Positions 60,001-64,000 of a stretch of DNA of 64,000 nt are shown piece after piece. The DNA is from Verrucomicrobiia bacterium (GTDB lineage: Bacteria; Verrucomicrobiota; Verrucomicrobiia; Palsa-1439), in the NCBI GenBank assembly GCA_035516795.1, contig DATIZX010000079.1, positions 9,084 to 73,083 of the forward strand. Reading direction: 5' to 3'. Numbering within the stretch: position 1 is the first letter of the stretch; each line of letters begins with the position of its first letter. The position numbers were made by a program.

Positions 60001-63000
60001 GCGCCGCAGGAACTGCTCAAGATGGGTAAGTTCAACCTGACGGACGAGCAGATCGACCAGATCGTCACGGTGATTACTGGCATGACCGATGAAAAGCTGA
60101 TGCCCAATGAGGCGCGGCAGTTGACACCGGCAGAATTCGAGATCGAGCGCGGCCGGTGGACCGTGAAAGAATTGAACTGCATTGGCTGTCACATCGTCGA
60201 GGCGCAAGGCGGTGCGATCCGCGCGACGGGCATTCCGACGGGCATGGAACCGCCGATGTTGAGTGGCACGCCAACGCAGTTGCACCAAGGACGGCGGACG
60301 CAGCCAGATTGGCTGTTCCACTTCATCAAGTCACCACAAACGGGCGAGATTCGACCCTGGTTACACGTGCGAATGCCGACCTTTGGGTTGACGGATGGCG
60401 AGGCCAATACGCTGGTGAAGTATTTCGCGCTTCAGGGCCAGGCGCAGTTCCCGTATCAATCTCCGAAAATTGACACGTCACCGGAGCACCTGGCGGTGGG
60501 GAAACAATTGTTCACGCAATTAAAGTGCGCGTTGTGCCATATTGTGAACGGCAAGGCGCTGGGCAAACCGCTGTCAGAGATCCCAGAAGAAGACCTGCCA
60601 CGGCTGGCACCGAATTTGTCGCTGGCACATGACCGCCTGCAACGCGACTGGCTGATTAACAAATGGTTGCCCGAACCGCTCGCGCAAATACCGGGGACTC
60701 GCATGCCGCAATTTGAGTACGGACCAGCCATTGCGCCAAATGTCTTGGGCGGTGACGGACTGAAGCAACGCGAGGCGCTGGTGGATTACGTATTGATGTT
60801 GGGCGCGCAGGAGCCAGCGACGCAAGCCGTGGCTCCGCAACCAACTACGCAAGTACAACAGTAGGATGAAGATATGGCTAAAGACATCGCTCTATAACAG
60901 GTCAATCCGGGTCAAGTTTTTGTCCTTGAAAAAGAGCAATTCCAATAGAAAATTGGTTGGTGGTCGGCCAAAGGAGAATAAATGAAACTATCCAAAGTGT
61001 TGGTGGCAGTTACGGTGTTGTTCGCAATGACGACGGTCTTGCCGGCGGCGGATACGGCGTCGATTTCCGGGAAGATCAGCTTCGAGGGCACAGCCCCGAG
61101 GCGAAAGAAGATCAGGACCGATGCCGATCCCAAGTGTGCGGAGATGCATGCGGATGACCCGCTGCTTAGTGAAGAAGTCGTGGTCAACCCCAACAACACG
61201 TTGCGCAACGTGTTCGTCTACATCAAAAGCGGGCTGGAGGGCAGGACCTACGAACCCCCCAAGACCCCGGTCGAAGTCGATCAGACCGGCTGCCATTATG
61301 TGCCGCACGTGTTTGGTATGATGGCCAGGCAGCCGTTGAAAATTGTCAACGATGACGATACGTTGCACAACATTCACGCCATGCCCACGAAGAGCAAGGA
61401 GTTCAACGTCGGCCAGCCGAACAAAGGTATGTCCACAATGCGGACGTTTGCCGAGCCAGAAATCATGGTGCATCTGAAGTGCGACGTGCATCCGTGGATG
61501 AGTGCCTATGTGGGCGTGATGAGCAACCCGTTCTACAGCGTGACCGGTGACGACGGCACGTTTTCGATCAAGGGTTTGCCCGCGGGTGAATACGAAGTGG
61601 CCGCCTGGCAGGAGAAATATGGCGAACAAACCCAGAAGATCAAGGTGGGCGACGGCGAAGCCAAGACGGTTGACTTCACCTTCAAAGCGGAATAGGTAGG
61701 ACGTTCAATTTCGTTCCGGGTCGCGCGGGTGGCACCACAGCAGCGTGACCGGATTTTTACGGAGAGGATCGCAGACCGTGAGTCAGACAGCAACTATCGG
61801 GTATCCGGAGGCTCATCCGCACATCGATGTGCCGCACCATGAACTGTCGTTTTGGCGGAAGTACATCTTCTCGACCGACCATAAGGTCATTGGCATCCAG
61901 TACGGGCTGACCGCGTTGATATTCTTGTTTTTCGGCTTCTGCCTCATGCTCCTCATGCGCTGGCAACTCGCCTATCCGGGCAAACCGCTTCCCCTTCACT
62001 TTCTGACGAGATGGTTGGGCGACACTCGAATGCCCGGCGGCATCATGGCTCCAGAGTTTTACAACCAGCTCGGTGCGATGCACGGCACGATCATGATCTT
62101 TCTCGGAGTTGTGCCACTGGCTGTCGGCGCGTTTGGCAATTATCTCGTTCCGCTCCAGATCGGCGCGCAGGACATGGCGTTTCCAAAGCTGAATATGTCC
62201 AGTTACTGGGTGTACTTCGTCGGCGGTGTGGTCATGTTGTGCAGCTTCTTCGTGCCGGGTGGCTCGGCGCAGTCGGGCTGGACCTCCTATCCGCCGCTCG
62301 CGGTGATCAATCCTACCATTAGTCACAGCCTTTTCACGGGGCAAGCAATGTGGCTGACTGGCATGGTGTTCCTCATCACTTCGTCGCTGCTCGGATCGAT
62401 CAATACGATTACTACGATCGTCCAATTGCGCGCGAAAGGTTTGCACTGGATGCGACTGCCGTTCTTCGTTTGGGCGCAGTTGGTGACGGGATTCCTGCTG
62501 TTGCTGGCATTCCCGCCACTGGAAGCTGCCGGCATCATGCAGTTGATGGATCGCCTGGCCAGCACAAGTTTCTTTCTGCCGAGCGGCTTGGTGGTGGGCG
62601 GCAAAGCCCTGAACGTGAGCGGCGGAGGAAGCGCCTTGCTGTGGCAACACTTGTTCTGGTTTCTAGCACATCCGGAAGTGTACGTGCTGATCCTGCCGGC
62701 CATGGGGATCGTGGGCGAGATCATCGCCAACAATACCCGCAAACCGCTGTGGGGTTACAAGTCGCTCGTGTACTCGGTCATTTTCCTTGGCTTTATGTCG
62801 TTCATCGTCTGGGCGCACCACATGTTCCTGACGGGCATGGGCACGACGATCAACGCGTTTTTCCAAACGACGACGATGATCATCTCGATTCCTTCCATTA
62901 TCATTTTGACGGCGCTGATTCTATCGCTTTGGGGTGGTTCGATTCGGTTCACCGTACCGATGCTTTTCGCGCTGGCATTTCTGCCGATGTTTGGCATTGG

Positions 63001-64000
63001 CGGTTTGACGGGTCTGCCCTTGGGTCTGGCCACTGCAGACATTCAACTCCACGATACGTATTACGTCATTGGCCATTTCCACTACGTCGTGGCGCCGGGC
63101 ACGTTGTTCGCGTTGTTTGCCGGCATCTATTACTGGTTCCCGAAGGTGACCGGGAGGAAAATGAACGATACACTCGGGAAACTTCACTTCTGGGGCTCGC
63201 TCATTTTCATGAATGGCGTCTTTATGCCGATGTTCATCATGGGTCTGGCGGGCGTATCACGGCGGTTGTACGATGGGGGCGCGTCCTATCTGCACGCCGA
63301 GCATGTACTCGTCCTGAACAAGGTGATGTCTCACTCCGCCTGGGCACTGGGAGTTGTTCAACTGATTTTCATCGTAAACTTCTTTTGGGCCCTGTTTGCC
63401 GGACAGAAGGTCACGAATGACAATCCGTGGGAGGCAACCACACTCGAATGGGCGACGCCGACGCCCCCACCACACGGTAATTTCCTGAAAGTGCCGACCG
63501 TCTACCGTGGACCATACGAATACAGCGTGCCCGGCGCGAGGTACGGATTCCTGCCGCAAAATCAACCGGAGGGAGCGTAAATGTCAGCCGCAATAGAAAT
63601 TCCTTACAACTCGACGGAGCGACCCGATACCGGTCTCTACAATGCCAAACTCGGGGTGTGGTTGTTTCTGGCGTCGGAAGTGATGCTGTTCGGCGCATTG
63701 TTCTCCACGTATGTGCTGTTGCGCACCGGTGCCGACACGTGGCCGAGCGGTGCTCAAACCCTCAATGTCCCCCTTGCCACATTCAACACGTTCATTCTGA
63801 TCGGCTCCAGCGTGACGATGGTGATGTCGTGGGCGTCTCTGCAGATGAAAAGCTTCGCCCGGTTCCGCTTGTTCCTTGGGCTGACGCTGTTATGCGGGCT
63901 GATCTTTTTGGTGGCCAAAGGCTTTGAATATCACGAGCACATTATGAAGGGCGAGCTTCCCAGCTACAGCACGTTCTTCGCGATCTACTTTGTCATGACC

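Follow-up and report, generated by a model that had tools for sequence, protein, structure and literature searches.

We analysed a 64,000-nucleotide stretch of a Verrucomicrobiia genome (Palsa-1439; GenBank assembly GCA_035516795.1, contig DATIZX010000079.1, positions 9,084 to 73,083 of the forward strand), referred to below as the window, and focused on a 237-amino acid (aa) protein encoded directly upstream of the haem-copper oxidase genes ctaD (COX1) and ctaE (COX3). Sequence comparisons suggest that this protein is probably a periplasmic type-1 copper electron donor, or electron entry module, for the CuA centre of the A-type oxidase encoded downstream. We favour the electron-donor reading because of the synteny of the gene with oxidase genes, the natural fusions of the same module to oxidase subunits, and the conservation of its copper ligands.

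An earlier note on this DNA had described an amicyanin-like protein with a C-x2-H-x2-M loop at this position, and the description holds for an open reading frame (ORF) at 60982-61695 on the plus strand, stop codon included. A Shine-Dalgarno-like AAAGGAG (60972-60978, plus strand) lies 4 nt 5' of its ATG. A word-indexed search returned 7,318 homologues at E≤1e-3, the identical protein being that of a Verrucomicrobiae metagenome-assembled genome, and an exhaustive HMMER search matched 13,225 cluster representatives (50% identity), of which 1,536 reached E<1e-30, demonstrating that the ORF is a real, conserved gene. Homologues are annotated as "carboxypeptidase regulatory-like domain-containing protein", "hypothetical protein" or "DUF2141 family", and in some Joint Genome Institute (JGI) records as "plastocyanin". 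The existing annotation of the 237-aa protein covers the transthyretin-like sandwich only. No second copy of the module was found elsewhere in the window by tblastn. A promoter and terminator scan of 53000-64000 gave counts at or below shuffle expectation, and a separate transcript is therefore neither supported nor opposed.

Candidate copper site and domain architecture

The candidate ligands proposed in the earlier note are present in the motifs LHNIH and KCDVHPWM. They correspond to H129 (codon 61366-61368) in the former and to C167 (61480-61482), H170 (61489-61491) and M173 (61498-61500) in the latter, all on the plus strand. Together they form the type-1 ligand pattern H129-N130 ... C167-D-V-H170-P-W-M173, in which the C-x2-H-x2-M loop has the length of that in amicyanin, the shortest type-1 ligand loop known. 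Among 150 diverse representatives, each ligand is kept in at least 148 (H129 in 148, C167 in 149, H170 in 149 and M173 in 148), and the adjacent residues N130 (147) and W172 (148) are kept in nearly all. The C-x2-H-x2-M loop is likewise retained in 91 of the 98 module-bearing reading frames of the 80 related loci described below. From the sequence, we predict that the protein binds copper and is redox active.

Outside the ligand loop, the only cysteines are C52 and C104, which are kept in 148 and 149 of the 150 representatives, respectively. The simplest reading is a disulfide that would staple a short N-terminal insert, described below, to the cupredoxin domain. A second metal site formed by H56, H109 and H132 is unlikely because these residues are conserved at only 74-82%. 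Motifs of CuA, PCuAC, Sco and haem c were all looked for in the 237-aa protein, and none was found.

We utilized AlphaFold2 to predict the structure of the protein from an alignment of 33 homologues. The model, with a predicted local distance difference test score (pLDDT) of 90.5 and a predicted template modelling score (pTM) of 0.84, comprises a Greek-key cupredoxin β-sandwich together with a transthyretin-like sandwich, and thus supports the cupredoxin domain for which the earlier note had suggested structure prediction. The same note had placed this domain at the C-terminus, after the sandwich; the model and a splice test place it inside the sandwich instead. In the native protein, Pfam recognised only CarboxypepD_reg (PF13620) at aa 186-234, covering profile positions 32-81 with 38.7 bits, above the gathering threshold of 32.3. 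When aa 26-36, 70-86 and 181-237 were joined in silico, removing both inserts, the match widened to cover positions 1-81 of the 82 in the profile, and its score in this test went up from 41.9 to 47.2 bits. The cupredoxin therefore sits within a split CarboxypepD_reg sandwich, and the completed PF13620 match gives the order signal peptide, strand 1, insert 1, strand 2, cupredoxin and five further strands. Two interruptions (aa 37-69 and ~87-180) thus break up the PF13620 domain, and the second of them is the predicted metalloprotein domain.

On the DNA, all on the plus strand, these elements are arranged as follows. A probable Sec signal peptide (aa 1-22, LPA|AD) is encoded at 60982-61047; it coincides with the sole hydrophobic segment of the protein (aa ~5-24), has an A-x-A-type site and shows low pLDDT. 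Strand 1 of the split sandwich (aa 26-36; 61057-61089) corresponds to model strand E26-35 and falls within the spliced PF13620 match. Insert 1 (aa 37-69, 33 aa; 61090-61188) contains a short helix, residues 50-55 in the model, that carries C52 (codon 61135-61137). Strand 2 (aa 70-86; 61189-61239) is identified from model strand E78-83 and the splice test. The cupredoxin domain (aa ~87-180; 61240-61521) includes C104 (codon 61291-61293), and the C-terminal five strands of the transthyretin-like sandwich (aa 181-237; 61522-61692) complete the protein. The earlier note had read the N-terminal segment as a single anchor. The single hydrophobic segment is indeed there; it looks like a cleavable signal peptide, to judge from the alignment of LPA|AD with SQA|AD and AKA|AD of orthologues. 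The split sandwich is probably a rigid docking or spacer platform.

Oxidase linkage, fusions and tethers across phyla

We analysed the gene context of the module in a pattern scan with one genome per species, which gave at least 594 confirmed matches; the neighbourhood counts below refer to the best 80 loci. All related loci come from metagenome-assembled genomes, and their neighbours were called by tblastn with the proteins of this contig and by a crude ORF caller. The 80 loci span about ten phyla, including Verrucomicrobiota, Planctomycetota, Omnitrophota, Acidobacteriota, Gemmatimonadota, Latescibacterota, Armatimonadota, Bacteroidota/Ignavibacteria/Rhodothermales, Calditrichia and "Deltaproteobacteria". 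Genes of the cox, cta, SCO1 or DUF420 type occur in the flank of 65 of the 80. Within 1 kb downstream on the same strand, we found COX1 in 28 loci, the haem-A synthesis genes CtaA/CtaB in 20 and COX2, the gene for oxidase subunit II (ctaC), in 14, which together make 62 of 80. On the other side, the multihaem subunit of a Rieske/cytochrome b complex lies within 1 kb upstream in 22 loci. The consistently linked neighbours across the 80 loci are cox, cta or Rieske/cytochrome b genes, and these upstream and downstream neighbours indicate that the module gene tends to lie between a quinol-oxidising module and the oxidase.

Two loci have a different upstream partner. In L076 (6786-9858; Verrucomicrobiia) and L077 (6505-9769; Acidobacteriota), NrfD-like and ActD genes of the alternative complex III type precede the module and cox genes, with an unassigned ORF of ~400 aa between them and the module. 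Neither ActB-type nor Rieske/cytochrome b genes were found in the flanks of these two loci. The NrfD-like/ActD set may represent a reduced quinol-oxidising module.

At least seven loci contain a second module in tandem that continues in frame into the N-terminus of COX2, as established by translation for L013, L022 and L040 and by coordinates for L023, L026, L033 and L054. The three translated fusions share one layout: a signal sequence, a full module with all ligands, a low-complexity linker of ~50 aa, two transmembrane (TM) helices and the CuA domain. Cluster representatives from the homologue search showed further fusions. P0158 has the same architecture, with the module N-terminal to COX2, whereas P0150 carries the module after COX2 and an acidic linker of ~80 aa, and P0156 carries it after COX4 (subunit IV) and a long Pro/Ala linker. 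The fused modules of L013, L022, L040, P0158, P0150 and P0156 all retain the copper ligands. Among 43 linked COX2 reading frames, 40 contain the full CuA motif and none contains the haem c motif CXXCH. In most linked COX2 proteins, Gln replaces the usual Glu of the CuA motif (CAQLCG).

The module also occurs in other settings. Representative P0121 combines a zf-HC2 anti-sigma-type N-terminus and a TM helix with two tandem modules, and P0168 joins the module to a PF06181 (Urate_ox_N) membrane domain. The module of L061 is closely preceded by genes for an extracytoplasmic function (ECF) sigma factor and a zf-HC2/VWA protein.

Lipid or TM tethers with flexible linkers prevail among the relatives. 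Of the 144 representatives in which the module could be recognised, at least 70 carry a lipobox and, behind it, a flexible linker with a median length of 36 aa, and several others have a TM helix with a linker of ~100 aa. A signal peptide only, as in the protein of the window, was found in 28. Cytochrome cy, auracyanin, halocyanin and the caa3 cytochrome c domain are built in this way, held to the membrane or to the oxidase through a flexible linker.

The oxidase genes, subunit II and the upstream cluster

Downstream of the 237-aa gene, COX1 (61778-63580, plus strand; 600 aa) begins with a GTG start preceded by GGAGAGGA and matches Pfam COX1 at 5e-132. Against TIGR02891, it gives an E-value of 2.4e-173 and 577 bits, below the curated cutoff of that model (670.75). 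COX3 follows at 63581-64000 on the plus strand; the window contains the first 140 of its 203 aa, and the gene continues past the window end. As the earlier note had stated, there is no subunit II ahead of ctaD: tblastn found no COX2 homologue in the whole 64-kb window, and the sole CuA-like regular-expression match, at ~8655, coincides with no tblastn match to the COX2 of the contig.

That COX2 lies beyond the window. Locus L001 is a 20.7-kb stretch of the same 109-kb contig and is identical to the window over 3,019 bases, from 60982 to the window end. Extending the search to the right, as the earlier note had proposed, revealed a 315-aa COX2 at L001 14072-15019 (window-equivalent 65053-66000), 1,053 bp past the window end. 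This protein carries two TM helices as well as the HSFF histidine and CAQLCGLGHYRM, and it lacks CXXCH. An ordinary CuA subunit thus belongs to this oxidase, its gene standing at the end of the cox genes and not at their start. The earlier note had offered two alternatives, of which one, a subunit II surrogate, is refuted by this canonical COX2. The other was that subunit II lies beyond the window and that the cupredoxin is a dedicated donor; its first half stands with the COX2 on the same contig, and its second half is the best-supported reading, although we infer it.

The order of genes past the window end is the remainder of COX3, COX4, two small membrane ORFs, COX2 and a CtaA-CtaB fusion, followed on L001 by two ATP-binding cassette (ABC) transporter genes, SCO1, DUF420 and a 283-aa paralogue of the cupredoxin/transthyretin module. 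The resulting cox order, COX1-COX3-COX4-two small TM ORFs (68 and 82 aa)-COX2, is unusual (L001 12600-15019 from COX3 to COX2, window-equivalent 63581-66000). In the COX2 of the contig, inserted residues separate the HSFF histidine from the Cys loop, and the Pfam COX2 match ends at this insertion. The ABC ATPase and ABC-2 permease pair (L001 16836-18574) lies between the CtaA-CtaB fusion and SCO1 and has a possible role in cofactor or copper handling; ORFs also fill the CtaA/B-SCO1 gap in several related loci.

The 283-aa paralogue (L001 19609-20460) lies ~8.6 kb downstream of the 237-aa gene and closes the SCO1-DUF420 assembly block, with orthologues in L005-L008 and L010. The Cys ligand is gone in six of six orthologues, and the copy in this genome has lost the second His and Met as well. 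These ligand losses in the alignment rule out a Met/His copper chaperone, and the paralogue is probably a degenerate, copper-free copy.

Upstream, a Rieske/cytochrome b cluster adjoins the 237-aa gene on the same strand. It consists of a Rieske gene (54667-55269), a cytochrome b6-like gene (55285-56064; 259 aa), a subunit-IV-like gene (56076-57314; 412 aa) and, as its last gene, a 1,181-aa membrane-anchored cytochrome c with eight CXXCH motifs (57319-60864; Pfam Cytochrom_C 2.7e-31), all on the plus strand. This multihaem subunit is the sole c-type cytochrome in the window and the probable electron source for the cupredoxin. It starts with an N-terminal TM segment followed by a long coiled-coil-like region (aa ~55-280, weak SMC-type matches), and a LysM domain (Pfam 1.9e-5, aa 470-513), odd for a respiratory cytochrome, lies between its haem motifs. 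Cytochrome b is split into the 259-aa b6-like part and the 412-aa subunit-IV-like protein, which has a long N-terminal extension. Genes for a 2x[4Fe-4S]-type ferredoxin-like protein (53078-53542) and a 313-aa HEAT-repeat protein (53724-54665) lie 5' of the cluster, and the HEAT-repeat gene is conserved ahead of Rieske/cytochrome b genes in many related loci.

Proposed electron path, alternatives and known systems

In the proposed path, quinol would be oxidised by the Rieske/cytochrome b complex and its electrons would pass to the eight-haem cytochrome c subunit. This subunit would reduce the copper site H129/C167/H170/M173 of the cupredoxin, which would in turn pass electrons to CuA of subunit II and on to haem a and haem a3-CuB. 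On this path, the cupredoxin would do what is done elsewhere by cytochrome c, whether soluble, tethered or fused to the oxidase as in the caa3 type. We infer the identities of donor and acceptor, the redox potential and the direction of transfer. We read the module best as the copper equivalent of the cytochrome c domain in caa3 oxidases, or else as a tethered carrier that supplies CuA with electrons. By functional analogy, the module and the caa3 domain would both be one-electron periplasmic modules tethered to subunit II, and in P0150 the module occupies exactly the position on COX2 where caa3 oxidases carry cytochrome c. The two differ in that the module has candidate copper in place of haem c and an unrelated fold, and in that the module of the window is separate and secreted.

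Several observations weigh against this electron-donor reading. The multihaem cytochrome could donate to CuA without an intermediate, in which case the cupredoxin would be dispensable. The isolated cupredoxin segment has no Pfam match at E≤10. Similarity to solved cupredoxins is marginal (E 0.024 by profile, 5fc9 and 9cck), and since the structure-sequence search gave these marginal matches only, no family member has a solved structure. An hhalign comparison with an approximate amicyanin query sequence aligned all four ligands but was statistically weak, with an E-value of 0.016, a probability of 2.8% and 60 columns. Neither the family nor its inserted-domain architecture nor the subunit II fusions are described in the full-text literature searched, subscription literature being outside its reach. 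In 15 of the 80 loci, a respiratory neighbour is absent; neighbours sampled in seven of these stand-alone loci were housekeeping genes (elongation factor P, phosphoenolpyruvate carboxykinase, ribonucleotide reductase, E2 acyltransferase and others) or had no Pfam match, and no alternative partner emerged there. Finally, in 20 of the 80 loci the nearest neighbours are haem-A synthesis (CtaA/CtaB), SCO1 or DUF420 genes and not structural cox genes, which would also fit a role in assembly. NCBIfam cupredoxin models likewise did not match the 237-aa protein, its only NCBIfam hit being a weak one of the C-terminal sandwich to an S-layer model.

An assembly role would make the protein a copper-delivery factor that replaces PCuAC and hands copper to CuA (or CuB) together with the SCO1 encoded downstream. 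Besides the 20 loci with haem-A synthesis, SCO1 or DUF420 neighbours, this idea is favoured by the called genes of L001, none of which encodes PCuAC. However, the ligands are the rigid electron-transfer set His/Cys/His/Met with an adjacent Asn, the PCuAC motif H(M)X10MX21HXM and the Sco motif CxxxC are absent, and there is no PF04314 or PF02630 match. Permanent fusions to COX2 and COX4 and tandem free-plus-fused copies suit a redox relay better than a cycling chaperone, and a lipid or TM tether on a long linker is a typical trait of carriers. We therefore give an assembly factor a rather small chance. The fusions also imply physical association, as expected of a stabilising partner that binds subunit II and keeps CuA and oxidase activity optimal without being obligatory on the electron path. 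A role of this kind has been proposed for AcoP, a cupredoxin encoded in cox clusters that binds tightly to an aa3 oxidase and returns activity to the destabilised enzyme (PMC4059628). However, a strict type-1 ligand set across about ten phyla argues for selection on the metal site, and the soluble or long-tethered forms, together with the position behind a multihaem cytochrome, suggest shuttling. AcoP itself has also been discussed as a possible electron carrier (PMC4059628), so the two readings overlap, and a purely stabilising role appears unlikely.

Equally unlikely in our estimate is a general periplasmic carrier, or terminal subunit of the Rieske/cytochrome b-multihaem complex, that would serve several acceptors. 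The module gene does lie directly behind the multihaem subunit in 22 of 80 loci, the flanks of some loci, such as L018 and L019, lack a structural cox gene, and 15 loci stand alone. Linkage to cox/cta genes (62/80) is nevertheless much commoner than linkage to bc-type complexes (22/80). In the scanned set of fused representatives, the module is attached to an oxidase subunit in three cases and in no case to a bc subunit or another reductase, with P0168 and P0121 carrying Urate_ox_N and zf-HC2 instead of reductase domains; nir, nos or similar acceptor genes did not turn up among the neighbours scanned. The subunit II surrogate, that is, a CuA-less oxidase using a mononuclear cupredoxin, drew only on the position of the gene ahead of ctaD within the window. 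We give it practically no credence, because the same contig and orthologous loci encode a genuine COX2, and because the 237-aa protein lacks the hallmarks of COX2: it has one hydrophobic segment, a single Cys in the ligand loop, no C-x3-C motif and no PF00116 match.

In its proposed function, the 237-aa protein resembles cupredoxins of the plastocyanin or amicyanin class. Among known cupredoxins, amicyanin of Paracoccus (PDB 1aac, 3c75) is encoded in the mau cluster and acts between methylamine dehydrogenase and cytochrome c551i. No mau genes were found among the called genes of L001, which comprise Rieske/cytochrome b, cox, cta, SCO1 and ABC genes, and this lack of mau context rules out amicyanin proper. 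The 237-aa protein further differs from amicyanin by the extra split transthyretin-like domain and two more near-invariant cysteines. For a cupredoxin that is encoded in a cox cluster and bound to an aa3 oxidase, the nearest precedent is AcoP of Acidithiobacillus ferrooxidans (PDB 7z3b). The 237-aa gene shares the location in a cox cluster, and physical association is implied only by the fusions in other organisms. Unlike the 237-aa protein, AcoP is a single-domain green-copper protein without a transthyretin-like domain; its close homologues occur in acidophiles and distant ones in halophiles, and its role is described mainly as protection of oxidase activity at low pH.

The membrane-tethered blue copper carriers auracyanin, halocyanin and sulfocyanin, and plastocyanin for the cyanobacterial oxidase, belong to other families and phyla, have other loop lengths and lack the inserted-domain architecture; we know of no natural fusion of any of them to subunit II or IV. 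Among proteins of solved structure, the closest in sequence are cupredoxins of Nitrosopumilus maritimus (5fc9, a 'purple cupredoxin', and the C-terminal domain of 9cck), with which the family has HN ... C-x-x-H-P-W in common. These proteins are archaeal and either single-domain or fused to a multicopper enzyme, and to our knowledge they have no link to haem-copper oxidase genes. In 5fc9, Arg (CSFHPWRVGLV) stands at the axial Met position of the 237-aa family, and its site is therefore not a classical type-1 site.

Extending the electron-donor reading beyond this genome, we consider it about an even chance that a phylogenetically very broad 'cupredoxin-aa3' design exists, in which a type-1 copper module ferries electrons from a quinol-oxidising complex to CuA of an A-type oxidase in place of a c-type cytochrome. 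The design would include Verrucomicrobiota, Planctomycetota, Omnitrophota, Acidobacteriota, Gemmatimonadota, Bacteroidota/Rhodothermales and others. Its module may stand free, be held by a lipid or TM tether, or form one chain with subunit II or IV, and its quinol-oxidising partner may be of the Rieske/cytochrome b-multihaem or the NrfD/ActD type. Blue copper donors to terminal oxidases are known in cyanobacteria, haloarchaea, Sulfolobales, Chloroflexus and acidophilic iron oxidisers. If our reading is true, this principle would also hold in many phyla that are abundant in soil, freshwater and the sea and whose respiration is known from little more than genome sequences. The reading would identify the electron-entry component that has been missing for their aa3 oxidases, in which subunit II carries no cytochrome c domain. 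It would also improve the metabolic annotation of metagenomes and bear on the copper-versus-iron economy of respiration, while the natural subunit II fusions offer a ready system for studying electron transfer from type-1 copper to CuA.

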